Source: an uncultured Mycoplasmatota bacterium
GTDB lineage: Bacteria; Bacillota_I; Bacilli_A; RF39; UBA660
DNA length: 43,325 bases
Direction: 5' to 3'
Assembly: GCA_948432605.1 (NCBI GenBank)
Contig: CAOJCV010000002.1
Span: 1 to 43,325, forward strand
The notes under the pieces are model-generated. The model saw only the letters and a list, made by a program, of their open reading frames with translations, was not told the DNA's origin and searched no databases. Shown piece by piece: positions 3 through 34,278 of the stretch. The position numbers and the translations under genes were made by a program. Every line of letters starts with the position of its first letter. Position 1 is the stretch's first letter.

Positions 3-1148
3 GAAAAAACATTTGAATTAAGATTATGGATGGATGAGAATACCCCAACAGTGGATGATGCAATGAACGCAAATTATATGGGCAAGATTACCATAAATAG
101 TAGTTATGTAGCTTCACCAAATACAAAAAATATGATGGTAGCTATGGAAGTTCATGAAGAAAGTGATGGAATGAATAGAGGAGTTCTCCAAAATGATATT
201 TATACTCAAAATGGCAGATTTTCCATTTCAAAAGTTGTCTTTCAAGATCAAGTAAATCCAATAGAAAATCCAGAAGAAATAGTAGATTTTAGTGTATCGC
301 AAGATAGATCAGTGTTGGGGTATTACGTAAAAGATAATCTTGAAAGTGAATCTTCAACATATACATTATATATCCAAGCAGATGGAAAAATTAAAGTAAA
401 TCCTAAGGCTTCTTACTATGGGTTGGTCTGGTATGGTAATCTATGGAGTGGGCCATATCCAATCATAGAAGGATTAGAAAATTGGGATACCAGTTTGGTG
501 ACAGATATGAGTAATATGTTTTTTGGAGGTTCTTTTAAAGAATTAAATTTATCTCATTTTGACACCTCAAATGTAACTAATATGAGTGGTATGTTTCAAG
601 GTATAGAAAGTGAATGGGCCAGTATTGATGGTTTAACCAGCTTAGATATAAGTAACTTTGATACATCTAAAGTAACTAATATGAGTGGTATGTTTGGTAG
701 ACTGAGTAGCTTAACAAGCTTAAATGTAAGTAATTTTGACACATCAAAAGTAACCAATATGGGTGAAATGTTTTCAGGAATGAGTGGCTTAGCAAGTTTA
801 GATGTAAGCAACTTTGATACGAGAAATGTAACGAATATGAATTATATGTTTCATGGAATGAGAAGTTTAACGAGTTTAGACCTAAGCAATTTTGATACTA
901 CAAATGTAACGAATATGAGACATATGTTTAATGGAATGTACAGTTTAACGAATTTAAATCTAAGTAGTTTTGATACTTCAAATGCAACTGATATGCAGTC
1001 TATGTTTCAATACAATCGCAACTTAACAAACATAGTATATGGAAATAATTTTATCAAAAATTCTGAACTTAATATAAATTATATGTATAGTGACTGTCCA
1101 GCAAACAAACCAACTCATTCTTCTTGGGACGATGTTTCATGGGAGTAG
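3..1148 (+). CDS. DUF285 / BspA-like leucine-rich-repeat surface protein, 5'-truncated by the window edge
   Basis: The reading frame is open from nt 3 to the left edge, so the ATG at 30 is probably internal. The C-terminal half holds about 7 tandem 26-aa units of the form L(T/S)SL(D/N)xSNFDTSxVTNMxxMF. This is the signature of the DUF285 / bacterial surface protein 26-residue repeat family. Confidence 0.75.
   Translation, partial: EKTFELRLWMDENTPTVDDAMNANYMGKITINSSYVASPNTKNMMVAMEVHEESDGMNRGVLQNDIYTQNGRFSISKVVFQDQVNPIENPEEIVDFSVSQDRSVLGYYVKDNLESESSTYTLYIQADGKIKVNPKASYYGLVWYGNLWSGPYPIIEGLENWDTSLVTDMSNMFFGGSFKELNLSHFDTSNVTNMSGMFQGIESEWASIDGLTSLDISNFDTSKVTNMSGMFGRLSSLTSLNVSNFDTSKVTNMGEMFSGMSGLASLDVSNFDTRNVTNMNYMFHGMRSLTSLDLSNFDTTNVTNMRHMFNGMYSLTNLNLSSFDTSNATDMQSMFQYNRNLTNIVYGNNFIKNSELNINYMYSDCPANKPTHSSWDDVSWE
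481..1010 (+). repeat. Degenerate tandem ~78-bp (26-codon) coding repeats of the LRR protein
   Basis: The FDTSxVTNMxxMF units recur with a 26-aa period, from WDTSLVTDMSNMF to FDTSNATDMQSMF. The DNA copies have diverged while the amino-acid pattern is conserved. Confidence 0.7.
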
Positions 1149-1768: not shown

Positions 1769-2741
1769 GAAATGTGTTGGATGTGGGGTTCATTTACAAA
1801 CAGAGAATAAAAATAAAAAGGGATATACTGTGTCTTTAGATAAAGATTATTGTATGCGTTGTTTTCGTTGGAATCACTATAAAGATTTTTCCTTAGGTCA
1901 GGAATGTATTAAAAAAGAAGATATTATTTCTAAATTAAATCAAAATTCAGGCTTAACTTTTTTCTTTATCGATTTCTTAAATTTACATGAGGAAGCAATA
2001 AGAGATTATGAAAAAATTAAAAATCCTAAAATGTTAGTTATTACAAAATTAGATACAATTCCAAAAAGTATTTATTTAGAAAAAATTAGAATGTGGCTTA
2101 AAGATGTGTGGCAAATAGAAAAAGTTATTTTTTTAAAAAAGAATAGTAATACTAGTCAAAAGAAAATAGAAACATGTATTAGTGAAATGCGTGTTAAGAC
2201 TGTTTATTTTGCAGGAATTACCAACGCTGGAAAAAGTACTTTTTTAAATTCTTTTTTTCAAAATGCTAAATTAACTGTAAGTGAAATGCCAAATACTACT
2301 TTGGATTTTTTGAAAATGAAAATGGGAGATATTACAATATACGATACTCCAGGAATTCCTTATTCTCAGTTTGCTTTAGATCCTAAATTTATTCAAAAAG
2401 TAAATTTAGAAGGAGAAATGAAACCTAAAAATTATCCATTAAAAAAGGAAGCGAGTTTAGTTATTGAAGATAAGATAAGAATATCTTTTTCAATAGATAA
2501 TAATATTACTTTTTTTGGAAGTAATTATTTACAATTAAAAAAAATATATGAGAAAAATTTATCTTTGTTAAATTTGAATAAATTAGAGCTCTTTGTTAAG
2601 AATAATAGTAATTTATATATAAAAGGGTTAGGCTTTTTCTATATTAAGAAAGCTTCTAATGTAAATATATATGGAGTTTCTCAAGACCAGATTTCTGTTG
2701 TCTCTTCTTTCTTGGGGGAAAGTGAGTGGAAGTATGAATAG
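1761..2741 (+). CDS. yqeH: YqeH circularly permuted ribosome-biogenesis GTPase
   Basis: The N-terminus has Cys pairs (CVGCG ... CMRC). The GTPase motifs run in permuted order: G4 (TKLD), G1 (GITNAGKST), G3 (DTPG). It overlaps yqeG by 8 nt. Confidence 0.85.
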   Translation: MNKKCVGCGVHLQTENKNKKGYTVSLDKDYCMRCFRWNHYKDFSLGQECIKKEDIISKLNQNSGLTFFFIDFLNLHEEAIRDYEKIKNPKMLVITKLDTIPKSIYLEKIRMWLKDVWQIEKVIFLKKNSNTSQKKIETCISEMRVKTVYFAGITNAGKSTFLNSFFQNAKLTVSEMPNTTLDFLKMKMGDITIYDTPGIPYSQFALDPKFIQKVNLEGEMKPKNYPLKKEASLVIEDKIRISFSIDNNITFFGSNYLQLKKIYEKNLSLLNLNKLELFVKNNSNLYIKGLGFFYIKKASNVNIYGVSQDQISVVSSFLGESEWKYE

Positions 2742-4485
2742 AATTCGCGTTATGGATGAAAATCTTGCTAATAAAATTGCAGCTGGTGAGGTTGTAGAAA
2801 AGTGTTCTTCTATTGTTAAAGAACTATGTGAAAATAGTATTGATGCAAAGGCTAAAACGATACTTATTAATCTTTTGGAAGGTGGAAAAAAACTTATTGA
2901 GGTTATAGATGATGGAATTGGAATGAATAGTGATGATGCAAGTCTTGCTTTTCAACGTCATGCTACTAGTAAAATATATAAAGATGACGATTTATTTTTT
3001 ATAGATACTTTAGGATTTCGAGGAGAAGCTCTTCCATCCATTGCAAGTGTTTCAAGAGTTGAATTAAAGACCAGTGATGGTAATGTTGGTACTCACATAG
3101 TGATTGAGGGTGGAAAAAGATTACTTGAAGAGAAAAGTGATGCAAGAAAAGGTACAATGATTAAAGTAACAAATCTTTTTTATAATACTCCAGCAAGGCT
3201 TAAGTATTTAAAAAGTGATGCATCTGAACTTGCAAATTGTGTTTCGCTTGTTGAACGTTTGGCTCTTTCTCATCCTGATATTTCTTTTACCTTAAATCAT
3301 GATGATCATTTTGTTGTTAAAACAAGTGGAAGTAATGATTTATTAAAAACAATTCATGAAATATATGGTGTTTCAGTTTCTTCTAAAATGATTGAAATAA
3401 AAAATTCTTGTGATGATTTTGATATTTATGGATATATTTGTAAGCCAGAAATTTTAAAAAGTAATCGCAATCATATGATTGTCTTTGTAAATGAAAGGGT
3501 AGTAAAAAATTTTGAAATAAATAAGGCGATTAATGATGCTTATTATACATATAAACCTGATATTAAATATCCTATTGTTATTTTAAAAATAAATACTGAT
3601 CCAACTTTGATTGATGTAAATATACATCCGACAAAGCAAGATATTAAAATGGGAAAAATGGATGTTTTAACAGATTTGATTTTAAATACTTTAAAAGATG
3701 CTTTATATAAAACTTTATTAATTCCAAATGCGGCAGAACGTATTCCTGTATCTAATCCAATTCAAAAAAAAATTTTGGAAAGTGTAGTTAAAGAAAGTGA
3801 TGAAGAGTATTCTATTACTACTCAAACTACTTTTGATTTTGCAAATAGTGAACTTGAGGAATCTGTAGAAGATGTGATTGCTGTAAATCCGGAAATGAAA
3901 AAATTAAAGCTTTATCCAGTTGGAGTAGCACATGGGACATATATAATTGCTGAGAATGAAACAGGTGTATTTTTGATTGATCAACACGCTGCTCAAGAAA
4001 GGATTAATTATGAACGAAATATGAAAGCTTTGAAAGAGAAAAAAGTTGCTACTACAGAGCTTTTGTTTCCAATCACGATTGAACTATCTTCAAGCGATTA
4101 TTTAAAGTTAAAAGCTCAAGAAGATTTATTGCTAGAAATGGGTTTTGGAATAGAAGAGTTTGGAGTAAATACTTTTGTTTTTAAACATCATCCTACATGG
4201 TTATTGGAAGGGCATGAGGAAGAAAGTATTCGAAGAATTATTGATTTAATAGTTGGAGGATTATCTGGTTTTGATCGTGTAAAATTTAATGAATCGATTG
4301 CCATTACTTTGTCTTGTAAAATGAGTATTAAAGCGAATATGCATATTTCTCATGAAGCACAGGAAGAATTGTTAAATGAACTTTGTTTATGTGATAATCC
4401 ATATAATTGTCCTCATGGAAGACCTACGATTATAAAGTTTACAATTTATGATTTAGAACGAATGTTTAAAAGAAGTATGAATTAA
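2734..4485 (+). CDS. mutL: DNA mismatch repair protein MutL
   Basis: It has a GHKL ATPase N-terminus (IAAGEVVE, ELCENSIDA, DDGIGM), a C-terminal domain with DQHAAQERI, and the terminal CPHGRP motif. I chose the start MNRIRVMDENLANKIAAGEVV at 2734, and this ATG overlaps the yqeH stop (ATGAATAG). Confidence 0.95.
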   Translation: MNRIRVMDENLANKIAAGEVVEKCSSIVKELCENSIDAKAKTILINLLEGGKKLIEVIDDGIGMNSDDASLAFQRHATSKIYKDDDLFFIDTLGFRGEALPSIASVSRVELKTSDGNVGTHIVIEGGKRLLEEKSDARKGTMIKVTNLFYNTPARLKYLKSDASELANCVSLVERLALSHPDISFTLNHDDHFVVKTSGSNDLLKTIHEIYGVSVSSKMIEIKNSCDDFDIYGYICKPEILKSNRNHMIVFVNERVVKNFEINKAINDAYYTYKPDIKYPIVILKINTDPTLIDVNIHPTKQDIKMGKMDVLTDLILNTLKDALYKTLLIPNAAERIPVSNPIQKKILESVVKESDEEYSITTQTTFDFANSELEESVEDVIAVNPEMKKLKLYPVGVAHGTYIIAENETGVFLIDQHAAQERINYERNMKALKEKKVATTELLFPITIELSSSDYLKLKAQEDLLLEMGFGIEEFGVNTFVFKHHPTWLLEGHEEESIRRIIDLIVGGLSGFDRVKFNESIAITLSCKMSIKANMHISHEAQEELLNELCLCDNPYNCPHGRPTIIKFTIYDLERMFKRSMN

Positions 4486-5398: not shown

Positions 5399-6358
5399 TT
5401 CTTTTAATTCTAAATAAATATTTTTTTTGAAATCATGTTCTGTAATTTTTACTTCTCCTTCTTCATCTATACTTTTTAGTTGTGATGTAGTAATTAAAAA
5501 GTATTTGTGTTGTAGATAGTCTTTTCCATCTTTACTTACTGGATCATCCCAGGTAAGGTCTAAGTGTAACCATTGATTGTCTATGTAAATGGCATTCCAT
5601 ACATGTCCAGCACTGTTACTGCCTTTTTCTGGGGTCATTGCTACTTTAAAATTAGGAATATTCAATTTAATTAAAAATAGGGCCATTGCATCTGTATATC
5701 CATTACAAGTAGCAAATCCTTCAAAAAGTGGGCCATATGCAATGTAAGAACGGTATTTTGAAGAATTTTCATTATTTCTTTCAATGTCGTATTTTGTTGT
5801 ATTTATAATATAATCATGAATTTTTTCTATTTTTTCTCTTGTATTCATTGTGTCATTTAAAATTTCTTGGGCAATTTCATCTACTTTTTTATTAATTTGT
5901 TTTATTTCTTCTTCTTTGTAAAAATAATCAACTGTGATGGTAATACTTCCATTTTCACTTATTACTGTTCGTACATTTGAAAAGCCATTAAAGGGATGAA
6001 CGAAATTATTTAAATGGGTTAATAGATCTTGATTTTGACTAAATTCTTTTACATCATTTAAGCAGTTCACATATTCATTTGGGCAATAAAATGTAAATTT
6101 TTTCCAACCATTATTTACAATTGTATAAAATATGTTCATAATATCTTGTTTACTTAAAGGAACAAAATTTTCTGTTTGTTTTACAAATAAAAATGTTTCT
6201 TTTTTGGAATAATCATTTTTTGGTTCGATCACAATATCAGGCTCTTTTTTTATTAAATGTACTATTTGATCTGTTATTTTGTCCATATTAAAAAATAGAA
6301 ATACTAAAAAAAGAAAACAAGATAATGGGATAAAAATTTGTTTTATGATTTTTTTCAT
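5387..6358 (-). CDS. Membrane-anchored transglutaminase-like (papain-fold Cys-His-Asp) protein
   Basis: An N-terminal hydrophobic anchor (IFIPLSCFLFLVFLFF) is present. A C-terminal triad pattern follows: ATCNGYTDAMALF (Cys), AGHVWNAIY (His), HLDLTWDDP (Asp). The start could be ATG 6358 or 6364. I preferred 6358 for its spacing from AGG. Confidence 0.7.
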   Translation of the reverse strand: MKKIIKQIFIPLSCFLFLVFLFFNMDKITDQIVHLIKKEPDIVIEPKNDYSKKETFLFVKQTENFVPLSKQDIMNIFYTIVNNGWKKFTFYCPNEYVNCLNDVKEFSQNQDLLTHLNNFVHPFNGFSNVRTVISENGSITITVDYFYKEEEIKQINKKVDEIAQEILNDTMNTREKIEKIHDYIINTTKYDIERNNENSSKYRSYIAYGPLFEGFATCNGYTDAMALFLIKLNIPNFKVAMTPEKGSNSAGHVWNAIYIDNQWLHLDLTWDDPVSKDGKDYLQHKYFLITTSQLKSIDEEGEVKITEHDFKKNIYLELKEKNY

Positions 6359-9716: not shown

Positions 9717-11501
9717 ATGTTAAAAGAAAAACTTGCTCAAATTCCAAATTTACCAGGAAGCTATCAAATGAAAAATAAAGATGGGATTATTATTTATGTT
9801 GGAAAAGCTAAAAATTTACATAAAAGAGTAAATTCTTATTTTAATCGCACCCAAACTGGTAAAACTGCCAAATTAGTTAGTGAGATTAATGATTTTTCAT
9901 ATATTGTCACTTCTAGTGAGTTGGAAGCTTTTTTGCTAGAAATTAATTTGATAAAAGAATATGATCCGAAATATAATATTTTGCTAAAAGATGATAAAAG
10001 CTATCCTTATATTGAATTTATTGAACATCCTTATCCTAAACTTAAAGTTTCAAGATATTTAATGGTGAAAAAGAAGGAACATAAGAAACTATATGGCCCT
10101 TATCCAAATGCGTATGCTGCTAGAAGAATTGTAAATTTGTTAAATCGTTTGTATCCTTTAAAAAAATGTGATGGAAATCCAAAAAAAGTTTGTCTTTATT
10201 ATCATATTGGAGAATGTTTAGGATTTTGTGAAAAGAAAGAAACTGTAGAAGATATTTTGAAAATGAAGGAAGACATTTTGGGTTTTTTAAATGGAAATGA
10301 TAAAATTTTAAAAGATAAAATTATGGAAAAAATTAATCTTTATAGTGAAGCTTTAAACTTTGAATTAGCCCTAGAATTAAAACGTGAATTAGATTATATA
10401 AATATTGTTTTAGATAAACAAAAAATTACGATTCAAGATTTTACAAATCGCGATGTTCTTGGTTATTATTTTGATCGTGGTTATATTTCTGTGCAATTAT
10501 TATTTTTAAGAAATGGAAAATTAGTAGGGGGACATACTGATATGTTTCCTGTTGTTAGTGATTTGGTAAGTGATATGGAGTCTTATTTACCTGCTTTTTA
10601 TTCTCGTCATGAAATTCCTAAAGAGATTCTTATTTCGAATGATATTCATACAGATGTATTGAATGAATATTTTGAACAAAAATTATTTAGTCCTCAAAAA
10701 GGGCAAAAAAAACATTTATTAGATATGGCAGAAGAAAATGCTAGAATTAATTTGGAAAATGAATTAGAAATAACTATTAAAAAAGAAAAATTAACAGAAA
10801 ATGCTAATGAGGAATTAAAGCGTATTTTACATTTAGATATTTTGGATCGTATTGATTTATTTGATAATTCTAATCTTTTTGGAGATTGGTCTGTTTCTGG
10901 AATGGTTGTTTTTAAAAATGGAATGCCTGCCAAAAATGAATATCGTAAATATAAAATTAGCTTTGATAAAAATGATGATTATAATATGATGCGAGAAGTA
11001 ATTTATAGACGTTATCAAAGGGCATTGGTTGAAAAAACTGAACTTCCTAATTTGATTATTGTGGATGGTGGAATTGGGCAAATTCATGCTTGTAAAGAAA
11101 TTCTTCAAGAACTTAATTTAAATATTAAAGTTTGTGGTTTAAAAAAGAATGATAAACATAGAACGAATGATTTAGTGGATGGGGATACTTTTTTGCTTGT
11201 TGACATTCCACGTGATAGTGATGTTTTTCATTATTTGACAAGAATGCAAGATGAGGTTCACAGATACACCATTACATATCACAGGACTATTAGAAGTAAA
11301 GGATCTATCAGTAGTGTCTTAGATGGTATTCCAGGAATAGGCACCAAAAGAAAAAAAGATTTGATAAAGAAATTTGGTAGTGTTACAAATATGGAAAATG
11401 CTAGTTTAGAAGAATTAGAAAAGATAGTTCCACATGACGTTGCAGAATCTTTAAAAAGTTATTTAATGAGTAGAAAAAATGAAAAAGAAAAGAGAAAATA
11501 A
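9717..11501 (+). CDS. uvrC: Excinuclease ABC subunit C
   Basis: It has a GIY-YIG N-terminus (GSYQMKNKDGIIIYVGKAKNLHKRVNSYF) and a C-terminal helix-hairpin-helix region (IPGIGTKRKKDLIKKFGS). It is 594 aa with an AAGGAGG RBS. Confidence 0.95.
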   Translation: MLKEKLAQIPNLPGSYQMKNKDGIIIYVGKAKNLHKRVNSYFNRTQTGKTAKLVSEINDFSYIVTSSELEAFLLEINLIKEYDPKYNILLKDDKSYPYIEFIEHPYPKLKVSRYLMVKKKEHKKLYGPYPNAYAARRIVNLLNRLYPLKKCDGNPKKVCLYYHIGECLGFCEKKETVEDILKMKEDILGFLNGNDKILKDKIMEKINLYSEALNFELALELKRELDYINIVLDKQKITIQDFTNRDVLGYYFDRGYISVQLLFLRNGKLVGGHTDMFPVVSDLVSDMESYLPAFYSRHEIPKEILISNDIHTDVLNEYFEQKLFSPQKGQKKHLLDMAEENARINLENELEITIKKEKLTENANEELKRILHLDILDRIDLFDNSNLFGDWSVSGMVVFKNGMPAKNEYRKYKISFDKNDDYNMMREVIYRRYQRALVEKTELPNLIIVDGGIGQIHACKEILQELNLNIKVCGLKKNDKHRTNDLVDGDTFLLVDIPRDSDVFHYLTRMQDEVHRYTITYHRTIRSKGSISSVLDGIPGIGTKRKKDLIKKFGSVTNMENASLEELEKIVPHDVAESLKSYLMSRKNEKEKRK

Positions 11502-11504
11502 ATC

Positions 11505-11536
11505 TTGACAGGGGGGGGGGTATCTTTTGGTATAAT
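11505..11536 (+). promoter_or_regulatory. SigA-type promoter of the glycopolymer locus with a homopolymeric spacer
   Basis: TTGACA (11505-11510), a 20-nt spacer that begins with G10, then the extended -10 TGgTATAAT (11528-11536). It lies 4 nt after the uvrC stop and 127 nt before the ATG of the priming transferase. Confidence 0.6.
11511..11520 (+). repeat. G10 homopolymer tract (candidate slipped-strand contingency repeat)
   Basis: There are ten consecutive G. The longest other G or C run I could find by eye in the window is 6. Confidence 0.9.
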
Positions 11537-11662
11537 AAAGTTAACAAAAGATGATTTTGTTAGTTTAAATGTGATTCTCTTGTAAAGCTATTCTTATATT
11601 TGTTGCGAATTGTATTTTTTCATGCTAGAATTATTACAACAGAATTATTGTAGGGTGATTTA

Positions 11663-12304
11663 ATGAAAAATAAAGTTTCTAAAAGAAGGGTTTATTATTT
11701 TATCAAAAGAGGATTTGATATTTTTTGTAGTATTATTGGTATATTAGCTTTAATTCCGTTATGGATTATTATAAAGATTAGCTATATGTGTACTGGTGAT
11801 TTTCATGGTGTTTTTTATAGACAAAAAAGGTTAGGTAGAAATGGAAAAATTATACATATTTTTAAATTTCGAACAATGGTTGTAAATGCGGAAGAAATTC
11901 TTCAAGAATGGCTTCAGAATAATCCTCAGAAAAGAGAAGAATATTATAAAGATAGAAAAATTGAAAATGATCCAAGAATTACAAAGATTGGGAATGTTTT
12001 AAGAAAAACTTCTTTAGATGAATTTCCTCAATTTTTGAATATTTTATTTGGAGATATGTCTTTGATAGGCCCTCGTCCAGTTGTTTTGGATGAAGCAGAT
12101 AATTATGGAAAAAATAAAGCTAAGTTTTTAAGTATGAGACCTGGATTAACTGGATATTGGGCAAGTAATGGCCGTAGTAATATTTCCTATGAAGAAAGAA
12201 TGAAAATGGAACTTTATTACATTGATCATTGTAGCTTATTACTTGATATTCAAATAATATTTGATACCGTTTTTGCAGTTATTAAAAAAGATGGTGCAAA
12301 ATAA
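11663..12304 (+). CDS. Small monotopic polyprenyl-phosphate sugar-phosphate transferase (Bac_transf family, PglC/WbaP C-terminal type)
   Basis: It has an N-terminal re-entrant helix (FDIFCSIIGILALIPLWIII), KFRTM, DPRITKIG, and the hallmark DEFPQFLNILFGDMSLIGPRP. Confidence 0.9.
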   Translation: MKNKVSKRRVYYFIKRGFDIFCSIIGILALIPLWIIIKISYMCTGDFHGVFYRQKRLGRNGKIIHIFKFRTMVVNAEEILQEWLQNNPQKREEYYKDRKIENDPRITKIGNVLRKTSLDEFPQFLNILFGDMSLIGPRPVVLDEADNYGKNKAKFLSMRPGLTGYWASNGRSNISYEERMKMELYYIDHCSLLLDIQIIFDTVFAVIKKDGAK

Positions 12305-12423
12305 AAGGAATTTTGTAAAAAAATGTAACTAATTTGAATAATTTGAAAATTATGTTATATTTATTTAAATATAGTTTTTTTGGGAAATGTTTTTTCTTTA
12401 AAACAAAGAATAGAGGTAGAATT

Positions 12424-13032
12424 ATGGAATATATGGAGTTGACAATTGAAGATGTAAAAAAATTGTCACTGGATTTAGCGAAAAAAATAAAAAAAGATTT
12501 TAACCCTGATTACGTTCTTTTTGTGGAACGAGGGTCTTTATATATAGGACAAGAAGTATCTAATTTTTTTGAAGTTCCTTTGTTAGGTGTTTCTGCTTCT
12601 CGAAAAAAAAGTAAATTGAAAAAAGTTGTTAGTCCATTATTGATTATAATTCCGTCATTTATAAAGAAAAAGCTTAGGGAAAAAGAAATAAATTCTAATA
12701 CTCATGAGAAAAATTCTGATAGAAAAGTTTTTTTGAATTTTGATTGTAATTTAAATAAAAAGAATGTTGTAATAGTGGATGATTCTGCAGATACAGGATT
12801 TAGTATTTTGCAGATTCAAAAAAAGTTAAAAGAAAAATATCCAGAAATTACAGTTAAAACAGCTTGTTTAAATGTATTAGATAAAAGTGTAAAAAATATT
12901 AAAATTGATTATTTTTTGATGAAAAATACTATGTTGTCAGGTCCATGGTCGAATGATTCAAAATTTCATAAACAATTTTTAATTGATTTTCAGCATTATA
13001 AGAGTGGAGGTTTTTTTTGTGAAAAATATTAA
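12424..13032 (+). CDS. Type I phosphoribosyltransferase-like (PRPP-binding) protein
   Basis: It carries the PRPP-binding signature NVVIVDDSADTGFSILQI. I set the start at MEYMELT (ATG 12424, GAGGT RBS). The track's longer ORF begins in low-complexity sequence. Confidence 0.6.
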   Translation: MEYMELTIEDVKKLSLDLAKKIKKDFNPDYVLFVERGSLYIGQEVSNFFEVPLLGVSASRKKSKLKKVVSPLLIIIPSFIKKKLREKEINSNTHEKNSDRKVFLNFDCNLNKKNVVIVDDSADTGFSILQIQKKLKEKYPEITVKTACLNVLDKSVKNIKIDYFLMKNTMLSGPWSNDSKFHKQFLIDFQHYKSGGFFCEKY

Positions 13033-13861
13033 TGAGGAGCTAAAAAAATTACAGTCAATAGAACTAGATATGTTACAAGAATTAAAAAAAATTTGTACTA
13101 AACATGACTTAAAATATTATATTATTGGAGGAACTTTATTAGGAGCAAAACGACATGGTGGATTTATTCCATGGGATGATGACATTGATGTAGCGATGCC
13201 AAGAAAAGATTATGATTCTTTTATTTCTATAGCCAAAAAGGAGTTGGTGCATCCTTATAAGATAAATCATTATACATTGGAAGATAGTGATCCTACAAAA
13301 TATGTTGCTGGGGTTGTTAATTCAGATGTTATTGTTTATGAAGATCGTGCATCAGAGTTTTCACAAAATTTGTGGATTGATATTTTACCAATAGATGCTT
13401 TACCAAATAGTTGGTTAGGGATGAGAATGTTTAAATTTAGAACTTATTATTATCGTGCTCTTTCTGGTTTTGTTAATATAGATAAAATTAGAAATATTAA
13501 AAGAAAGTGGTATGAAGTTGCTCTTATAAAATTTGCACAAATAATCCCTATTGGAAAAATTTTAAATCTTTTTAAAATTCGTATTAAAATGGATAAAATG
13601 TTTCGAAAACAAAATTATCTAAAAGCAAATTTTGTAGGAACTTTTTTAGGAAGATATGGGTTTCATGAAGTTGTTCCTAAATCTTATTTTGGTGAGGGAA
13701 CTATGATAGAGTTTGAAGGTATTCCTTTTAATGCTCCAGAAAAGCTTGAAGAATATTTGACTCATATGTATGGCGATTACATGCAATTACCACCAGAAGA
13801 TAAAAGAAATCCACATATTGTTAAGGTAGAATATAAAAACAAAAGAAAAGAGGAAAAATAA
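13019..13861 (+). CDS. LicD-family phosphotransferase (CDP-alcohol-dependent phospho-alcohol transferase)
   Basis: It has the hallmark LKYYIIGGTLLGAKRHGGFIPWDDDIDVAMPRKDY and the C-terminal YGDYMQLPP. The probable start is GTG 13019 (GGAGG RBS at 13006-13010), which overlaps the PRTase-like stop by 14 nt. The alternative ATG 13070 would remove conserved N-terminal residues. Confidence 0.85.
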   Translation: MKNINEELKKLQSIELDMLQELKKICTKHDLKYYIIGGTLLGAKRHGGFIPWDDDIDVAMPRKDYDSFISIAKKELVHPYKINHYTLEDSDPTKYVAGVVNSDVIVYEDRASEFSQNLWIDILPIDALPNSWLGMRMFKFRTYYYRALSGFVNIDKIRNIKRKWYEVALIKFAQIIPIGKILNLFKIRIKMDKMFRKQNYLKANFVGTFLGRYGFHEVVPKSYFGEGTMIEFEGIPFNAPEKLEEYLTHMYGDYMQLPPEDKRNPHIVKVEYKNKRKEEK

Positions 13862-13863
13862 AT

Positions 13864-14274
13864 ATGAAAAGAATTATAACTTATGGAACATATGACTTAT
13901 TACATTATGGACATATTAATTTATTGAAAAGAGCGAAAGATTTGGGAGATTATTTGATTGTAGGATTATCCACAGATGAATTTAATACAAATGCAAAAAA
14001 TAAGAAAACTTATTTTCCTTATGAAGTCCGTAAGCAATTGCTTGAATCATTGAGATTTGTAGATTTGGTTATCCCTGAAGAAAATTGGGAGCAAAAAAAG
14101 ACTGATATAGTAAAATATGAAGCAGATGTTTTTGTTATAGGTGATGATTGGGCTGGCAAATTTGATGAATTAAAAGAATTTTGTGAAGTTGTTTACTTAC
14201 CAAGAACACCAGAAATTTCTACTTCGAAAATTAAATCAGATTTAGGAATTAATTCTAGTAACCAGAAAGAGTAA
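13864..14274 (+). CDS. tagD: Glycerol-3-phosphate cytidylyltransferase (makes CDP-glycerol)
   Basis: It has YGTYDLLHYGHINLLKRAK (HxGH), the C-terminal TPEISTSKIK (RTxGISTT-like), and a length of about 136 aa typical of TagD/TarD. Confidence 0.9.
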   Translation: MKRIITYGTYDLLHYGHINLLKRAKDLGDYLIVGLSTDEFNTNAKNKKTYFPYEVRKQLLESLRFVDLVIPEENWEQKKTDIVKYEADVFVIGDDWAGKFDELKEFCEVVYLPRTPEISTSKIKSDLGINSSNQKE

Positions 14275-14278
14275 TTTT

Positions 14279-16174
14279 ATGAATGATTGTCCTTATGCAT
14301 TAGAAGAAATTTATTCTAAAATTGATACAGCTGAAATAATATCTTTTGATATTTTTGATACTTTAATTAAAAGAAATTTTTCTGAACCGAAGGATATTTT
14401 TTTTCAGGTACAACAGATATATAATAATACACATGATCAAAAAATTATTGATTATGTTGAGCAAAGAATAGAGGCCCAAAAAAAAGCTCGATTAGCCCAT
14501 ATAAAAGATGATTATACTTTTGAAGAATTATATAATTTTTTACAATATGAAGATTTTATAAAAAGTGAATTAAAAAATATTGAAATTGAAGTAGAATTAA
14601 ATGCTTGTGTTGCTAATGAGTGGATGAAAAATGTGTATGATTATTGCTTATCAAATAATAAGACTATTGTAATTGTTTCAGATATGTATCTTGATGAGAG
14701 TATTGTTTCTAAAATATTAAATAAAAATGGTTTTAATAATTATAAAAAGTTATATGTTTCTTCGAAATATAGATTACGAAAGAGAAATGGATTATTATTT
14801 AAAAAAGTGTTGTCAGATTTTTATATAAAACCTCAAAAGTTTTTGCACATTGGAGATTCTTATAAGAGCGATTATTTATTTGCTAGAAAAAATGGAATGC
14901 AAGCAGTTCATATTCCAACAAAGGTAAATAATTTGAATTATTATTGTAATAAAGTTCCTAATTCATTAGAAGAAAACTTTTTTTTGAATTTTTTAAATAA
15001 TAAAATTACTAGTCAAAGAAGTCGCGAAGAAAAAATTGGCTTTGAAATATTTGCACCATTGTTATATGGTTATATTCATTGGTTAAAAGAAAAGTTTTTG
15101 GAGAAAGATTTAAAAAATATTTTCTTTTGTTCAAGGGATATGTATTTAGTTTATAGTTTTTTTGATAAATATTTACCAGATTTTTTGTCACACTATTTTT
15201 ATATTTCAAGAAAGAGCATTCGAGGAGCTTATCTATATAAATATCCAACATTAGAAAATATAAATGATATTATATCTGTAAAAAAAATGTCTATGAAACA
15301 ATTTTTAAAAAATATTAATGTCAATGAAAATAATGTTAAGACAGTCTTACAAAATTGTGATTTAGATTTATCTATTTCTATAGATTTGGCGTCTCCTACT
15401 ACTAATTTTCGAAATTTTGTAGAAAAAATTAAAAAAGAAATTGTATCAAGTAATAAAGAAAAATATGATTTATTTTTAAAATATTTAAAGCAAATAAATT
15501 TTCAAGGAGAAGTTGCTTTGGTGGATAGTGGCTGGAATGCGACTTCACAATATTGTTTGAGTAAAATAATAGAAGATGTCAATATAAATGGTTTTTATGT
15601 TGGATTAGAGTACAAAGCATATGAAAGAATAAATCCAAGTTTGTTGCATGGTTATTTATTTTCTTTAAATAAAAATGTTCAGCTTATACCTTTTGTTAAT
15701 TCTTTTAAACAAGTTTTGGAGTCTGTGCTATCAGGAACACAACAGTCTGTAATAGGTTATCAATTAAATGAAGAGAACAAGGTTATTCCTGTTTTAGATA
15801 ACACAAGCGTGGAGATGCCAGTATTTGCTTTGGATGTTCAAAAAGGTATAATGTCTTTCTTACAAAACGCTTTAGAAAGCAATCTAAGTCTGTTTTGTTC
15901 AGAACAATTTTTATTTTATGGTATTTATAACGTGTCGACAAATCCAGATTTAAAAGATGTTAAGATTTTAACTAATTTTCAAATAAATAATCTTGAAATA
16001 AATTCCTACAATTATCCTACAAATAGTGTTATTTTCTATTTATTTCATCCAAAGTTCTTTTTTAAAGAATTCAAACAAGCACCGTGGAAAGTTGGGTATT
16101 TAAAAGCACTATTAAAAATTAAATTACCATATTATAAGATGTATAGATTTTTAAAAAAAATGACTAAGAGGTGA
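14279..16174 (+). CDS. HAD-phosphatase-like N-terminal domain fused to a ~400-aa uncharacterised C-terminal domain
   Basis: N-terminal HAD-like motifs are SFDIFDTLIKR, IVIVSDMY and HIGDSYKSDY. The remaining ~400 aa has no motif I recognise, although blocks such as FFCSRDMYLVY and VALVDSGWNATSQ look conserved. It ends in TGA just before the Wzx RBS. Confidence 0.6.
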   Translation: MNDCPYALEEIYSKIDTAEIISFDIFDTLIKRNFSEPKDIFFQVQQIYNNTHDQKIIDYVEQRIEAQKKARLAHIKDDYTFEELYNFLQYEDFIKSELKNIEIEVELNACVANEWMKNVYDYCLSNNKTIVIVSDMYLDESIVSKILNKNGFNNYKKLYVSSKYRLRKRNGLLFKKVLSDFYIKPQKFLHIGDSYKSDYLFARKNGMQAVHIPTKVNNLNYYCNKVPNSLEENFFLNFLNNKITSQRSREEKIGFEIFAPLLYGYIHWLKEKFLEKDLKNIFFCSRDMYLVYSFFDKYLPDFLSHYFYISRKSIRGAYLYKYPTLENINDIISVKKMSMKQFLKNINVNENNVKTVLQNCDLDLSISIDLASPTTNFRNFVEKIKKEIVSSNKEKYDLFLKYLKQINFQGEVALVDSGWNATSQYCLSKIIEDVNINGFYVGLEYKAYERINPSLLHGYLFSLNKNVQLIPFVNSFKQVLESVLSGTQQSVIGYQLNEENKVIPVLDNTSVEMPVFALDVQKGIMSFLQNALESNLSLFCSEQFLFYGIYNVSTNPDLKDVKILTNFQINNLEINSYNYPTNSVIFYLFHPKFFFKEFKQAPWKVGYLKALLKIKLPYYKMYRFLKKMTKR

Positions 16175-16177
16175 GTT

Positions 16178-17695
16178 ATGAGAACAAAGAATTCTATTCG
16201 TAATTTATGTTATGCATTTATAGGACAATTTTTTGGTTTAATAATAAGTTTTTTAGCACGAATGGTTTTTGTGCATACATTGAATGTGGAATATTTAGGA
16301 GTGAGTGGATTATTTACAAATATATTAAATATTTTATGTTTTACGGAACTCGGTATTGGGACTTCTATAGCATTCTGTTTGTATAAGCCATTAGAAGAAA
16401 GAGATACGGAAAAAATCAAAACTTTAATGTTTTTCTTTAAAAAAGTATATTGCTTTTTAGGGGTATTAATTCTTATTCTTGGTTGTTGTTTTTTACCTTT
16501 TTATAAGTTTACATTAAATGAAATTCCTAATATTTCTGATTTAAATTTAATTTATATATTATTTGTGATAAATACTGGAATTTCATATTTCTTTTCTTAT
16601 AAAAGAACTTTGGTAATTACAGATCAAAAAAGATATATTGCTACTATCTATCGTTATGTTTTCTATTTTTTTCTAAATGTTTTTCAAATTATTATTTTAT
16701 TATGGTTTCATAATTATATATTGTTTTTAATTCTTCAAATTATTTTTACTTTTTTAGAAAATTATTTCTTATCAAAAAAAGTAGATAAATTATATCCGGA
16801 ATTAAAAGAAAAAAATGTAAAAAATATTGAAAAAGAAGAGCTTCAAAACATAATAACAACCTTTAAATCTGTAGTCTATCACAAATTTGGTGGTGTTATA
16901 TTGAGAACAACTGATAATATTTGTATATCAAAAATTTTAGGTGTGTTTTTTGTTGGATTATATTCAAATTATTATATGATTACAAATGCTTTAGATACAA
17001 TTATTTCACAAATATTTAATTCTGTAGTGGCAAGTATTGGTAACTTAAATGTGAATAATACACGTGAAAAAATGGAAAATGTATTTCATAAAATCTTTTT
17101 TTTAAATTCTTGGATTTATGGTTTTTGTAGTATTTGTTTAATTTCTTTAGCAAATCCATTTATTGAATTATGGCTAGGAAAAGATTATATTTTAGATTTT
17201 TCTATTTTAATCGCGATTGTTTTGAATTTTTATATTTTTGGGATGCGTAAAACATGTATGACTTTTAGAGAAGCTACTGGTAATTATGAGTTAGATAAGT
17301 ATAGTCCGCTTATAGAAGCTGTGATTAATATTGTTTCCTCTATTATTTTTACTAAATTTTTTGGTTTAATAGGTGTTTTTCTTGGAACAATTTTAAGTTG
17401 TCTTTGTACTTGCTTTTGGTGGGAACCTTTAGTAATTTATAAAAAAAGTCTGAAATCAAATTTAACGGATTATTTTAAAAAATATTTTCTTTATTCGGTT
17501 GTAACTTTAGGTTTAGGTGTAGTAACAGTTTTATTATGTAGTTTTATTTCTAAAGTTAATTTTATAACGTTTTTTCTGAGATTATTTTTGTGTATTATAA
17601 TTCCTAATATTACATATTATTTTATTTATAGAGAAAATAAAGATTTTAATTTTTATAAAAGTTTAATTAAGAGAAAGGTGTGTAAAGAAGCATGA
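16178..17695 (+). CDS. Wzx-type polysaccharide flippase (MOP superfamily)
   Basis: This 505-aa polytopic membrane protein has the N-terminal pattern typical of polysaccharide-biosynthesis flippases (NSIRNLCYAFIGQFFGLIISFLARMVF). GAGGTGA RBS. Confidence 0.8.
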   Translation: MRTKNSIRNLCYAFIGQFFGLIISFLARMVFVHTLNVEYLGVSGLFTNILNILCFTELGIGTSIAFCLYKPLEERDTEKIKTLMFFFKKVYCFLGVLILILGCCFLPFYKFTLNEIPNISDLNLIYILFVINTGISYFFSYKRTLVITDQKRYIATIYRYVFYFFLNVFQIIILLWFHNYILFLILQIIFTFLENYFLSKKVDKLYPELKEKNVKNIEKEELQNIITTFKSVVYHKFGGVILRTTDNICISKILGVFFVGLYSNYYMITNALDTIISQIFNSVVASIGNLNVNNTREKMENVFHKIFFLNSWIYGFCSICLISLANPFIELWLGKDYILDFSILIAIVLNFYIFGMRKTCMTFREATGNYELDKYSPLIEAVINIVSSIIFTKFFGLIGVFLGTILSCLCTCFWWEPLVIYKKSLKSNLTDYFKKYFLYSVVTLGLGVVTVLLCSFISKVNFITFFLRLFLCIIIPNITYYFIYRENKDFNFYKSLIKRKVCKEA

Positions 17696-19062
17696 CATAT
17701 TTGTTTTTAATTTTAGTAATTTTGTTTTTGACAGTTATGTCATATCGATTATTTTCTAAGGATTTTTTATCTCCTTCTTTCTTATTGTGTATTTCTTTTC
17801 TTTTTGGGGTTGTTTGTTCTTTTTTTGGACGTTTAAGTTGGAATCCAATTGAAGAACTTCATTTAGAGACTTTATCCATTATTATTATAGGTTTATTTTG
17901 TTTTATTGTTGGAGAAATTATTGTTCGGTTATTCGTAAAAATAAAATTAAAAAAAATAGGAGAGCAAAAAAAGATAAATATAGAATTTTGGAAAATTATT
18001 ATTTCTTTCTTGTTCGTAACAATTACAATGGTTTTATATTTTTTTGAAATTCGAAGAATCGTTTTTCAGCTGGGACATAATACGAACAATATTAGCCAAA
18101 TTTTAAAATTATATCGAGAAACTACAAGTTTATATACTACTAAGTATGTTGGCACGGATTTATCGATTAATGTTATAGTTTCACAAATGAGAAAAGCATG
18201 TGATATGCTATGTTATTTATACATGTTTTTTCTAGTAAATAATGTTACGTGTCAATCATGGAAAGAAAGTTTTTTGAAAGGAAACCGTAAATTTAATATA
18301 GGTTATATTTTAATTATTTTGGTTTGTGCGATTTCTTCTTTCTTAACTGGTGGTAGAATGAAAATCATGAGTTATATTATAGGGTTTGTGTTTTTGTATT
18401 TGTGTTTGAGAACACGTAATAGTGAAATGAAAATTAATAAGAAAAAGATTATTAAATATTTTATGTTATCATCACTTCCTTTATTATTGTTTTTTTATAT
18501 AAGTTCAGCAATAGTTGGAAGAAAAAAAGATGTTTCTCCTTCAAGTTACGTATCATTTTATTTCGGTTCTGCTATAACTGGATTGGATAAATATGTAGAA
18601 GATCCAGCGAAAAAAAATGGAAGATTTGGTGAGGAAACATTATCAGGTATATATACTACTTTATATAAATTTCATTTAATTGATGAAACTGATCCTATTT
18701 CTTTACGTTGGTATCCATATCAAATTCAAGATACAGTCATTCACGCTAATATTTTTACATCTTTTCGAAGGTACTATCATGATTTTGGAACAACTGGGCT
18801 TGTTTTGTGTCAAATTTTATTTGGAATGATTATGGTATATTTATATTATAAAAGCACTAGTAGTAAAAATGTGTTGTATATAATATTTTATTCTTCAATT
18901 GTTTACATTTTATTAGATCATGTTCGTGATGATATATTTTTTAGAAACATTGTGCATTTTAATACAATAATAAATTTAATACTATTATCTATAGAGTATT
19001 ATTTATTAGTTCATTTTAGTTTTAAAGACTTGAGAAATTTTAAATTAAAAATAAAACGTTAA
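17692..19062 (+). CDS. Polytopic membrane protein, candidate Wzy-type repeat-unit polymerase
   Basis: The protein is 456 aa with many hydrophobic segments and no soluble catalytic domain. Its start overlaps the wzx stop (ATGA at 17692-17695). The assignment rests on position and topology only. Confidence 0.5.
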   Translation: MTYLFLILVILFLTVMSYRLFSKDFLSPSFLLCISFLFGVVCSFFGRLSWNPIEELHLETLSIIIIGLFCFIVGEIIVRLFVKIKLKKIGEQKKINIEFWKIIISFLFVTITMVLYFFEIRRIVFQLGHNTNNISQILKLYRETTSLYTTKYVGTDLSINVIVSQMRKACDMLCYLYMFFLVNNVTCQSWKESFLKGNRKFNIGYILIILVCAISSFLTGGRMKIMSYIIGFVFLYLCLRTRNSEMKINKKKIIKYFMLSSLPLLLFFYISSAIVGRKKDVSPSSYVSFYFGSAITGLDKYVEDPAKKNGRFGEETLSGIYTTLYKFHLIDETDPISLRWYPYQIQDTVIHANIFTSFRRYYHDFGTTGLVLCQILFGMIMVYLYYKSTSSKNVLYIIFYSSIVYILLDHVRDDIFFRNIVHFNTIINLILLSIEYYLLVHFSFKDLRNFKLKIKR

Positions 19063-20594: not shown

Positions 20595-22061
20595 ATGAAA
20601 AAAAGTAGTAAAAAAAATAGTAAGTATAGAATGATATCAAAATTTAGTCAATTATTGTGGATTTTATCTATATTGTTGATTATGTTGCTTGGGTATTTTA
20701 TTTATTCTTCTAATGTGTTGCCTTTAAAATATTTTTTAATCATAATTGGAATTTGTTTCGTATTTTTAGTGTTACATGGTTTTTTTGTATTGAAAAAGAA
20801 TACACGATTATGGTTATTAATTTTGCTAAATATTGTTACTTTAATTTTTATGTGTGGAGAAGTTTTTGCTATTACTAAAATTAGTGATATGATTAATTTT
20901 TTGAGAGAGAATTTAGCTAATCATTTTGAAACAAATGTTTACAATATTATTGTGAATAAAGATTCTTCTTATTCTAAAATTGATGATATAAAAAATAAAA
21001 CATTGAAAACTGTTAAAGATATGGAAGATTTAAATTTATTTGAAACAAGTGTGAAGAATAAAGTAGATGGATCTATAGAATATCAAGATAATATAGTTGA
21101 TTTATTAACTAAAATTAAAAATGATAAAGAGCTTATAGTAATTGTTAATTCAGGTAGTTATGACGCAATGGTTGAAATGGATGATAAGTTTGAAGATAGT
21201 GTTAAAATTATTGATACTATAGTTATTACAGTTGAAATTCATAATAATGAAACCGGCATTGATATTACAAAAGACCCATTTGTTCTTTATTTAAGTGGTA
21301 TTGATACAAGAAGTAATTATTTACCTTCAAGAAGTTTAAGTGATGTTAATATTCTTTTGGCTATTAATCCAAAAAATAAAAGAATTTTGATGATTCATAT
21401 TCCTAGAGATTATTATGTTCAAATTCATGGTACTTCAGGTTATAAAGACAAACTAACTCACACTGGAACTATTGGTGGTGTAGAGTTAACTATGAAAACG
21501 CTTGAAGATTTACTGGAAATAGAACTACCATATTATTTTAGAGTTAATTTTAATGCTGTTGTTAATTTAGTAGATGCAATAGGAGGAATCAATATTAATT
21601 CTGATGTAGATTATTCTTTTACATGTTGGACTGATCGTAGTTGTGTGTTCCATCCTGGATTAAATTCTGTAGGTGGGAAATGTGCTCTCGCATTTGCTAG
21701 AGAGCGTCATGCGTATGCAACGGGAGATAGACATCGTGGAGAAAACCAAGAACAAGTCTTAGAATTAGTTATTAATAAAATTACAAGTTCAAGTACTATT
21801 ATTTCTAAATATACTGATATTTTAAATGCATTAAATGGAACGTTTCAAACTAATATTTCAATGGAAGAAATTACAAATTTAGTTAAAATGCAAATTGATG
21901 ATATGAGTCCTTGGAGGATGGAAACTTTAAATGTAGATGGAACAGGTGCTTACATGCCAACTTATAGTTATCCAGGACAAAATTTGTATGTTATGGAACC
22001 AAAGATGGATACTGTTACAAAAGCTATTGAGAAATTAAATGAAGTATTGGAGACCCCTTAA
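20595..22061 (+). CDS. LytR-CpsA-Psr (LCP) family glycopolymer-peptidoglycan ligase
   Basis: An N-terminal multi-TM region is followed by an extracellular LCP core (YLSGIDTR, SDVNILLAINP, MIHIPRDYYV, ALAFARERH, GDRHRGENQEQV). AGGAGAG RBS. Confidence 0.85.
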   Translation: MKKSSKKNSKYRMISKFSQLLWILSILLIMLLGYFIYSSNVLPLKYFLIIIGICFVFLVLHGFFVLKKNTRLWLLILLNIVTLIFMCGEVFAITKISDMINFLRENLANHFETNVYNIIVNKDSSYSKIDDIKNKTLKTVKDMEDLNLFETSVKNKVDGSIEYQDNIVDLLTKIKNDKELIVIVNSGSYDAMVEMDDKFEDSVKIIDTIVITVEIHNNETGIDITKDPFVLYLSGIDTRSNYLPSRSLSDVNILLAINPKNKRILMIHIPRDYYVQIHGTSGYKDKLTHTGTIGGVELTMKTLEDLLEIELPYYFRVNFNAVVNLVDAIGGININSDVDYSFTCWTDRSCVFHPGLNSVGGKCALAFARERHAYATGDRHRGENQEQVLELVINKITSSSTIISKYTDILNALNGTFQTNISMEEITNLVKMQIDDMSPWRMETLNVDGTGAYMPTYSYPGQNLYVMEPKMDTVTKAIEKLNEVLETP

Positions 22062-32164: not shown

Positions 32165-32893
32165 ATGAAACAAAATTTAATATTGGATGCTGGAGAAATG
32201 TTTGAAAAAGATAAATTAATAGCAAGAAAAAAAATTAATGATGTTTTAGTAAAACATTATTTTATAAAAGATGGAAAAAAGGAAAAAAGGAATAGTGGAG
32301 ATTATTTTACTCTTTCTTTTGATGATGATGTTTTATATAAGAAGGAAAAAGTTTTAGAAAAAGTATTTTTAAAAACTTTTAAAACATTTTTAGCTAAATA
32401 TCATAAAGGTGGGACTATTTTGTTTGTTGGTTTAGGAAATTCTTCGATATTAGGAGATTCTTTTGGTGTGAATACACTAAATAAATTAATTGCCACGAAT
32501 GCTTATAATGATTTTTTAACGATTCCTAAAGTTGCTTTGTTTGCTCCTGAAACAACTAGTAAAACTGGTATATCTAGTTTTAAACTAATTGAAATGGTAG
32601 TAAATCATTTAAAACCAGATGTAATCATTTTGTTAGATAGTTTTGTAACTTCTAATGTAAACTTTATTAATAGAACAATTGAGATTAATGACTGTGGAGT
32701 TATTTTTCAAGATCAGTTACGAAGTAATCGTGTGATCGACAAGAAAACTTTTCAAATTCCAGTATTGTCTATCGGTTGTCCAACTCTTTTGGAATATGAA
32801 AAAACTTTTTTTTCTAAATATACTTTAGAACAAGATTTAGAAATTTTAACTAAAATAGTAGCAAATGCAATAAATCATACTGTAATGTCTTAA
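32165..32893 (+). CDS. gpr: Germination protease GPR (peptidase A25), short form
   Basis: It is collinear with B. subtilis GPR as I remember it. GDYFTLSF matches GRYLTLEA. ILFVGLGNSSILGDSFG matches LIVGLGNWNVTPDALGP. FAPETTSKTGISS matches FAPGVMGITGIET. KPDVIILLDSFV matches KPDFVIAIDALA. IPVLSIGCPTLL matches VPVIAIGVPTVV. Both catalytic Asp positions are retained. Confidence 0.8.
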   Translation: MKQNLILDAGEMFEKDKLIARKKINDVLVKHYFIKDGKKEKRNSGDYFTLSFDDDVLYKKEKVLEKVFLKTFKTFLAKYHKGGTILFVGLGNSSILGDSFGVNTLNKLIATNAYNDFLTIPKVALFAPETTSKTGISSFKLIEMVVNHLKPDVIILLDSFVTSNVNFINRTIEINDCGVIFQDQLRSNRVIDKKTFQIPVLSIGCPTLLEYEKTFFSKYTLEQDLEILTKIVANAINHTVMS

Positions 32894-32943
32894 ATCGACA
32901 TTCTTTTTTTATTTGATATATTACAATATATATAGGTGATATT

Positions 32944-34200: not shown

Positions 34201-34278
34201 ATATTTGAAATTAAACTATCAAATTTTTGCTAGTTTTTTTTATAGTTTTTCTGTATAATATTGATAGGTGATGGGTGG

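Follow-up and report, generated by a model that had tools for sequence, protein, structure and literature searches.

The intergenic region between uvrC and the first gene of a surface-glycopolymer locus appears to carry two tandem sigma-A-type promoters, P1 and P2, the upstream of which holds ten consecutive G residues in the spacer between its hexamers. The reading we favor, and regard as rather likely, is that P1 is an auxiliary promoter of consensus strength throttled by this slippage-prone tract, and that contraction to G7-G8 boosts the glycopolymer operon above a floor. The region lies in a 43,325-nt stretch of DNA that was analyzed as a whole and is referred to here as the window; the coordinates of its features and of poly-G tracts in related genomes are given in Table 1.

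Table 1. Positions of promoter elements and genes in the window, and of long G tracts in related gut Bacilli.
Feature	Position	Strand	Evidence or source
MutL mismatch-repair protein	2671..4485	+	Pfam MutL_C, DNA_mis_repair, HATPase_c_3
uvrC, 594 aa	9717..11501	+	Pfam GIY-YIG, UvrC_RNaseH, HHH
P1 -35 hexamer TTGACA, perfect consensus	11505..11510	+	Sequence; pair-shuffle statistics
G10 homopolymer, first half of P1 spacer	11511..11520	+	Sequence, run counts, shuffles
P1 extended -10, TGgTATAAT	11528..11536	+	Sequence; TGaTATAAT in L091 lineage
P2, predicted: TTGCGA (11603-11608), 17-nt spacer, TGcTAGAAT (11623-11631)	11603..11631	+	Promoter scan, conservation
Putative ribosome-binding site AGGGTGA, ahead of ATG at 11663	11652..11658	+	Sequence; inference
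Initiating polyprenyl-phosphate sugar-phosphate transferase (Bac_transf, WbaP-type catalytic/C-terminal domain), 213 aa	11663..12304	+	Pfam 1.8e-60; NCBIfam WbaP/EPS_sugtrans
Phosphoribosyltransferase-like protein	12334..13032	+	Pfam Pribosyltran
LicD-family phosphotransferase	12983..13861	+	Pfam LicD 1.6e-45
Cytidylyltransferase (TagD/TarD-like)	13864..14274	+	Pfam CTP_transf_like
631-aa protein with HAD-like domain	14279..16174	+	Pfam, NCBIfam, weak matches
Possible Wzx-like flippase	16178..17695	+	NCBIfam WZX_like, 37 bits, below cutoff (weak)
Wzy-type polymerase	17692..19062	+	Pfam O-ag_pol_Wzy, 30.4 bits (cutoff 26.6)
LytR-CpsA-Psr (LCP) ligase, attaches glycopolymer to wall	20595..22061	+	Pfam 1.2e-36
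Promoter tract, TTGACTtctt-G10-catgaTAGAAT	L011:8312-8342		
Promoter tract, TTGACTta-G9-taaagttaTATAAT	L026:8147-8177		
Promoter tract, TTGACAc-G10-tattatTATAAA	L031:6433-6463		
Promoter tract, TTGACTttc-G8-tacttTATACT	L077:1768-1795		
Promoter tract, TTGACTcc-G8-tgttaTATAAT	L080:1532-1560		
Signal-peptide tracts	L098:39-48, 3215-3224, 6116-6125; L099:1256-1265; L100:34-42; L101:33-42		GCA_947631205 and matching rabbit-gut assemblies

P1 begins 3 nt after the uvrC stop codon (11499-11501), and TATCTTT separates its G10 from TGgTATAAT, giving a hexamer spacing of 20 nt; the preliminary description of this DNA had placed all of these elements correctly. The A-rich 3' end of uvrC (about 11470-11504) occupies the place of an UP-like element and may act as one. 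With a GC content of 26.6% (G 16.6%, C 10.0%), the window contains no other G or C run longer than 6. Homopolymer counts returned two G6 as the only further G runs of at least 6 and no C run of that length, confirming an earlier count by eye. Dinucleotide-preserving shuffles of the window predict 0.07 G8+ words, against three overlapping ones observed, all within the G10. Perfect TTGACA-N15-21-TATAAT pairs are likewise in excess, with 0.37 expected in such shuffles and two present, P1 among them. The second, a TTGACA-N20-TATAAT on the minus strand (35531-35562), lies antisense within lepA (34261-36090) and is probably due to chance. At the sequence level, the G10 is therefore a pure homopolymer of slippage-prone length inside the spacer of a predicted sigma-A-type promoter. 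It shares its place in the spacer, here that of a promoter known by prediction, with the porA, tp0126 and vlp class of switches, and is uninterrupted over more than the ~7-8 residues that characterize that class.

Several other roles for the G run were considered and rejected. A terminator scan found no terminator-like site between uvrC and the tract, as had been stated before, and the tract itself is ruled out as the uvrC terminator by the lack of both a complementary C run and a terminator match. A G-quadruplex is ruled out because only a single G run is available, and reiterative transcription because the tract lies upstream of the -10 rather than at a start site. The alternative -35 sequences that would give a spacing of 17-18 nt, ACAGGG and GACAGG, are poor candidates.

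P1 had been taken to head the locus, an account that overlooked P2. The promoter scan places P2 between P1 and the transferase start codon (ATG at 11663), 32 nt before the latter, and the same element is conserved in other species. Upstream regions were compared among the closest transferase homologues in other species (L095, L096, L196, and L197-L202). In L095 (84% identity) both promoters are present, P1 as TTGACA-18-TACAAT with an interrupted G run for a spacer (TATCCTCTAGGGGGAGGG) and P2 as TTGCGT-17-TGaTACAAT. The upstream regions of L096 (82%), L196 (80%), and L197-L202 (80%) have a P2-type promoter only, TTG(ACG/CTT/CGT)-17-TGnTA(T/C)AAT. Across the window and these homologues, P2 takes the form TTGCG(T/A), TTGCTT or TTGACG, then 17 nt, then TGnTA(C/T/G)AAT; it is kept upstream of homologous transferase genes in 5/5 related lineages checked, and P1 is not. 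By this comparison P2 is the predicted canonical promoter conserved in the transferase gene family and P1 a lineage-specific addition, which speaks for modulation above a floor rather than for switching the locus ON or OFF.

A genuine ON/OFF phase switch controlling the entire glycopolymer locus, with P1 as its sole effective promoter and G10 as the OFF or low state, is in our judgment quite unlikely. The perfect P1 hexamers and the tract would suit such a switch, as would a single G9 allele (contig L002) and the poly-G promoters of relatives, which are seemingly the sole promoters of their genes. However, the conserved P2, with its 17-nt spacer and extended -10, stands between P1 and the ATG, and read-through from uvrC is possible because no terminator intervenes. 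Moreover, were G10 the OFF state, nearly all sampled populations would be polymer-less, yet the locus is intact in each. The earlier proposal of a slippage switch or rheostat is partly supported, by the position and length of the tract, the G9 allele, the recurrence of such tracts in the clade, and a spacing off the clade's optimum; control of the whole locus by ON/OFF switching is unlikely given P2, and a boost or rheostat is more plausible. A riboswitch or antiterminator leader was dropped: Rfam gave nothing credible across the whole window at the gathering threshold or within 11400-11750 at E<=10, and the predicted fold of the P1 leader (11543-11670) is no more stable than those of its shuffles (z = +0.87).

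The spacing of P1 was judged against that of the clade. We counted TTGAC[AT]-Nx-TAnnnT pairs with at least 5/6 matches to TATAAT in the window and 80 related uvrC loci. The distribution has a sharp maximum at 17 nt, with 34 cases that include 5 with TGn; 16 nt comes next with 17 cases, and the background is ~10. Relative to this peak the P1 spacer is off its optimum, 3 nt too long at G10, in keeping with the earlier view that 20 nt is supra-optimal; G7 or G8 would correspond to spacers of 17 or 18 nt. In the favored reading, P2 would be the ancestral, canonically spaced promoter that provides basal expression of the glycopolymer operon and, with read-through from uvrC, sets its floor. P1, with perfect boxes and an A-rich upstream flank, would be held 3 nt out of register by the G10, whose length would change by slipped-strand mispairing as the DNA replicates. 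With a tract of G10 or G9 (20 or 19 nt), P1 would be weak and reliant on its TGn -10 alone; rare contraction to G8 or G7 (18 or 17 nt) would activate P1 fully, and the entire operon would be expressed more strongly. Acting in this way, the element would heritably and reversibly boost or grade the amount of surface glycopolymer rather than switch it ON or OFF. The firing of P1, the influence of tract length on its strength, and the pace and reversibility of slippage are what we infer from this arrangement. Given its perfect TGnTATAAT, P1 may also fire without a -35, making the spacing less important.

Variation of the tract within the species was followed in 13 contigs from JGI, ENA and Logan, the window itself excluded, which were gathered by exact-protein look-ups and one homologue (P0001, 98% identical) and are 97-100% identical to the window over the tract region. 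Eleven of the 13 contain the tract, as G10 in ten and G9 in one (L002), or with the window G10 in 11/12 and G9 in 1/12; these are counts of assembly consensus, and L002 is a low-coverage short-read assembly whose G9 may be a consensus error. The tract is the sole indel of L002 relative to the window across 5.1 kb. Contigs in which the tract is internal share the arrangement TTGACA-Gn-TATCTTTTG(G/A)TATAAT. G10 is thus the consensus in 11/12 assemblies despite strain divergence of up to 3%. Invariance across strains had been named beforehand as evidence against slippage; the tract proved near-invariant, apart from the one G9 allele at consensus level. Neither an exact-flank pattern scan of a metagenome contig collection, which gave no match, nor a protein-based scan of it, which returned distant homologues at most 66% identical, yielded further strains.

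Spurious poly-G arises from two-color Illumina chemistry, and several of the contigs end near the tract, as might be expected of a sequencing or assembly artifact. Nonetheless, the tract is internal and flanked by unique sequence in 12 independent assemblies produced by three pipelines from many samples. It is therefore not an assembly artifact, a concern raised at the outset, and we assign that explanation a negligible probability. Four of the 13 contigs end within ~20 nt of the tract (L094 at 11511, L093 at 11523, L010 at 11532, and L006 at 11541), and L094 starts exactly at its first G, a hint of an assembly-graph branch. Such ends hint at either tract-length heterogeneity or a drop in poly-G coverage or quality, and are confounded by the selection of short contigs.

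A second strain lineage, ~2% diverged (L091/L092), retains TTGACA-G10 with TGaTATAAT as its -10, a substitution that keeps the TGn motif. These contigs also keep uvrC, both promoters and a 98% identical transferase. The genes that follow are different: L091:3189-5642 encodes GT2, Stealth CR1/CR2 and Wzy_C-GT2 glycan proteins, compared with the genes at 12334-16174 of the window. The downstream region thus resembles a serotype-like, replaceable cassette behind a conserved module of promoter and first gene. The gene calls previously made for the locus hold in domain searches, which support Bac_transf, LicD, TagD-like and Wzy proteins and give a weak match for Wzx; VanZ is also among the genes of the locus. 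None of the 80 related uvrC loci (63-84% UvrC identity) has this glycopolymer operon within 4 kb of uvrC.

Among the other products encoded in the window are PBPs, MraY, FtsW/SpoVE, Gpr and SpoIIP, indicating that the host is wall-bearing and spore-forming. A DUF285 ('Mycoplasma protein') LRR-like surface protein is encoded at 30-1148 (+) and the sporulation genes gpr and spoIIP at 32165-33864 (+); together these suggest a relative of the Mollicutes that forms spores and has a wall. In a one-genome-per-species GTDB set, UvrC has its best matches, at 82-84% identity, in rabbit, chicken, human and ruminant gut MAGs labeled 'uncultured Bacilli/Tenericutes', including Ca. Ventrenecus. These MAGs belong to a Mycoplasma-related uncultured radiation of Bacilli (PMC10868615). 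Judging from the mutL gene of the window, mismatch repair is probably present in the host, and slippage rates would accordingly be limited rather than unchecked. In this it probably differs from Campylobacter, Helicobacter and Mycoplasma, which are rich in contingency loci.

Long G tracts recur in related gut Bacilli, and do so in a restricted set of places. The comparison set of 80 related uvrC loci amounts to 615 kb, and clade DNA in all to ~800 kb. Within the 80 loci G8+ runs are rare, and nearly all have the TTGAC[AT]-G8-10 layout. In the ~800 kb, 6/7 distinct G8+ tracts occupy the position of a promoter spacer (window, L011, L026, L031, L077, and L080). The same DNA contains 706 TTGAC[AT] sites on both strands, from which the chance of a tract lying 0-4 nt after one is ~2e-3 per tract. 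All six promoter tracts have their G on the non-template strand and start 0-4 nt past the -35. Runs of G5-G7 within 5 nt after TTGAC[AT] were not found anywhere in the ~800 kb; tracts are either absent or at least G8. An orthologue of the L026 gene from another species (L111/L112, about 1415-1450; 78% amino acid identity) has TTGACAta-G9 with a changed -10. Depending on the -10 chosen, the spacers of the relatives' tract promoters measure 15-20 nt. This spread could be what switches caught in different states are expected to look like, although the choice of -10 makes the register argument soft.

The recurrence of this layout bears on a further alternative, which we consider very unlikely: that P1 is unused, its hexamers and tract being a relic or a chance arrangement beside P2 as the real promoter. 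P1 is indeed absent at most homologous loci, where P2 is universal, and its 20-nt spacer is unfavorable. Against this, perfect TTGACA and TGnTATAAT boxes together with the sole G10 of 43 kb would be very improbable by chance; the arrangement is retained in the diverged L091/L092 lineage, with a substitution preserving TGn; L095 retains P1 with an 18-nt G-rich spacer; and the layout recurs at six promoter sites in relatives (L011, L026, L031, L077, L080, and L111/L112).

The poly-G promoters of relatives precede genes of a very large secreted-protein family (more than 3000 matches), whose members have a SipW-type signal peptide (…YAYW/FAYF…) and a C-terminus resembling DUF6273. GCA_947631205, a relative whose UvrC is 72% identical, has tandem paralogues of this kind with a G tract within their signal-peptide codons. 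There, G10 in L098, L099 and L101 leads to an ORF that ends after 34 aa, whereas G9 in L100 leaves the ORF intact, and deleting one G in silico from L099 restores a full-length protein. This G9/G10 frame difference between samples shows directly that poly-G length varies between natural populations of the clade, with an ON/OFF consequence. Contingency loci are characterized by length variants in opposite states in nature and by simple sequence repeats that are enriched at surface or secreted genes, recur through the genome or clade, and are rare elsewhere. Opposite-state variants were found for the coding tract of the relative, while the window tract shows G9 versus G10 only. The enrichment was found across the ~800 kb of clade DNA, in which almost all G8+ tracts lie at promoters of SipW-type genes, in the signal-peptide codons of the same family, or at the glycopolymer locus. 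Taken together, the repeated TTGAC[AT]-G8-10 layout and the G9/G10 frame switch mark poly-G contingency tracts as a trait of the clade.

The near-constant G10 of the window locus, together with G9 in both the L026 and L111 orthologues (19-nt spacer), points to selection for the tract. A near-constant length is equally compatible with a preferred modal length, with a static element, and with a switch. As a static promoter element, the tract would have a fixed, selected length and act structurally, as a rigid, A-like G.C tract, or through protein binding beside the -35, with P1 constitutive through its extended -10 and free of meaningful phase variation. This account we consider unlikely, though several observations favor it: G10 in 11/12 assemblies at 2-3% strain divergence, G9 in orthologous promoters of two species, the uniform strand and placement of all six promoter tracts, and the presence of MutL. 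Against it, every tract is at least G8, the hypermutable range, with none at G5-G7, and spacer lengths vary by locus from 15 to 20 nt. A coding tract of the same clade also occurs as either G9 or G10, a difference that alters the reading frame, and the window's own locus has a G9 allele. Finally, a G run is not known to serve as a sigma-A spacer element.

Several known systems resemble the predicted arrangement. Poly-G tracts of ~8-11 lie in the sigma-70-type promoters of T. pallidum tp0126, tpr E/G/J, F/I and tprL, which are surface-component genes; populations show a modal length with minority variants, tprL having ~80% of one length, and tp0126, with its poly-G between -35 and -10, is transcribed best at a 17-nt spacer (PMC7864442). 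The window shares with tp0126 a poly-G inside the -35/-10 spacer and a surface-component target. T. pallidum, however, is a spirochete of ~53% GC in which G runs are common and single promoters serve outer-membrane protein genes, whereas the window has 27% GC, a glycopolymer operon and a second (predicted constitutive) promoter downstream. In N. meningitidis, porA (poly-G spacer) and opc (poly-C at the -35) likewise have a homopolymer in or next to the spacer, as P1 does. Slipped-strand mispairing of these homopolymers moves the promoter stepwise between high, medium and no activity (PMC7864442). The meningococcal cases concern a Gram-negative pathogen and a lone porin or adhesin gene under one promoter, unlike the window's operon with P1 and P2, and the porA variants have sub-optimal spacing, whereas G10 in the window is supra-optimal.

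The phylogenetically nearest precedent is provided by the poly-A spacers of Mycoplasma hyorhinis vlp, the clade of the window lying in the Mycoplasma-related radiation of Bacilli. In this system a homopolymer sits in the -35/-10 spacer of promoters for a multigene surface-protein family, and the vlp promoters thus resemble the relatives' poly-G promoters of the SipW-type protein family. They differ from the window in having poly-A, lipoprotein targets and a wall-less organism, rather than poly-G and a wall glycopolymer operon. The Vlp system is cited in PMC11868660. The poly-T of Helicobacter pylori sabA is a promoter-proximal homopolymer that gives graded rather than ON/OFF expression (PMC4081817), as proposed for P1. 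The sabA tract, though, lies upstream of the -35 and acts by DNA bending and phasing, while that of the window lies in the core spacer. The capsules of C. jejuni and N. meningitidis and the capsule promoters of Bacteroides offer stochastic, heritable surface-polysaccharide variation in host-associated bacteria, as is proposed here. C. jejuni and siaD use intragenic frameshifting tracts and Bacteroides uses DNA inversion; neither has a promoter-spacer tract. The window differs from these known cases in its very AT-rich, mismatch repair-encoding, spore-forming host, in its target, a wall glycopolymer operon with serotype-like variation, and in the stacking of the tract promoter on a predicted constitutive promoter.

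More broadly, and as a tentative proposal that we rate as possible but below an even chance, the clade may have a poly-G 'phasome': uncultured, wall-bearing, spore-forming gut Bacilli that retain mismatch repair would carry G8-G10 tracts 0-4 nt past the -35 and in SipW-type signal-peptide codons, and in the species of the window one such tract would have been co-opted for an auxiliary promoter layered over a constitutive one, giving bimodal, heritable levels of a serotype-variable wall glycopolymer. Phase variation in the gut microbiota is known mostly from invertible promoters in Bacteroides and Clostridioides, and SSR switches mainly from pathogens. In our literature searches we came upon no published case of SSR-based phase variation in uncultured gut Bacilli of this kind; the class of mechanism is already well known, and the group of hosts is new for it. 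If the proposal is true, abundant uncultured Mycoplasma-related gut Bacilli diversify secreted proteins and a wall glycopolymer by poly-G slippage, both of which are likely targets of phage, IgA and host lectins. Consensus MAGs would then conceal the expression state of tract-controlled genes, and the length of their homopolymers should be determined from reads rather than lost to 'polishing'. Stacking a tunable consensus promoter above a constitutive one would also offer a simple natural route to graded, heritable expression.

The genome of L026 also contains a paralogue of its secreted-protein gene (L113:30-110; also L114 and L115), which has a homologous -10 and leader, with GG instead of TTGACT-G9, following two direct copies of AAAATGTATACATAA, each with the palindrome ATGTATACAT. 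These repeats are operator-like and may provide regulation in place of slippage there. The sole long tract of relatives outside a promoter spacer or signal peptide is an in-frame G10 (…DMGGGLK…) at L064:2300-2309, in a 624-aa protein with a weak match to sigma-70 region 4.

In unrelated gut organisms with a GC content of 50-56%, G or C tracts of 7-10 occur shortly upstream of full-length WbaP-type transferase genes. Sister contigs differ in the tract, with G10 at L153:221-230 versus G9 at L154:222-230, and G9 at L183:225-233 versus G6AG7 in L184; a further tract of this kind lies upstream of a WbaP-type transferase gene at L179:214-223. Poly-G control of polysaccharide initiation may be widespread in gut Firmicutes. 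One such region (L194:260-266) reads TTGCAA-tcc-G7-agtctgg-TATAAT, with a 17-nt spacer.
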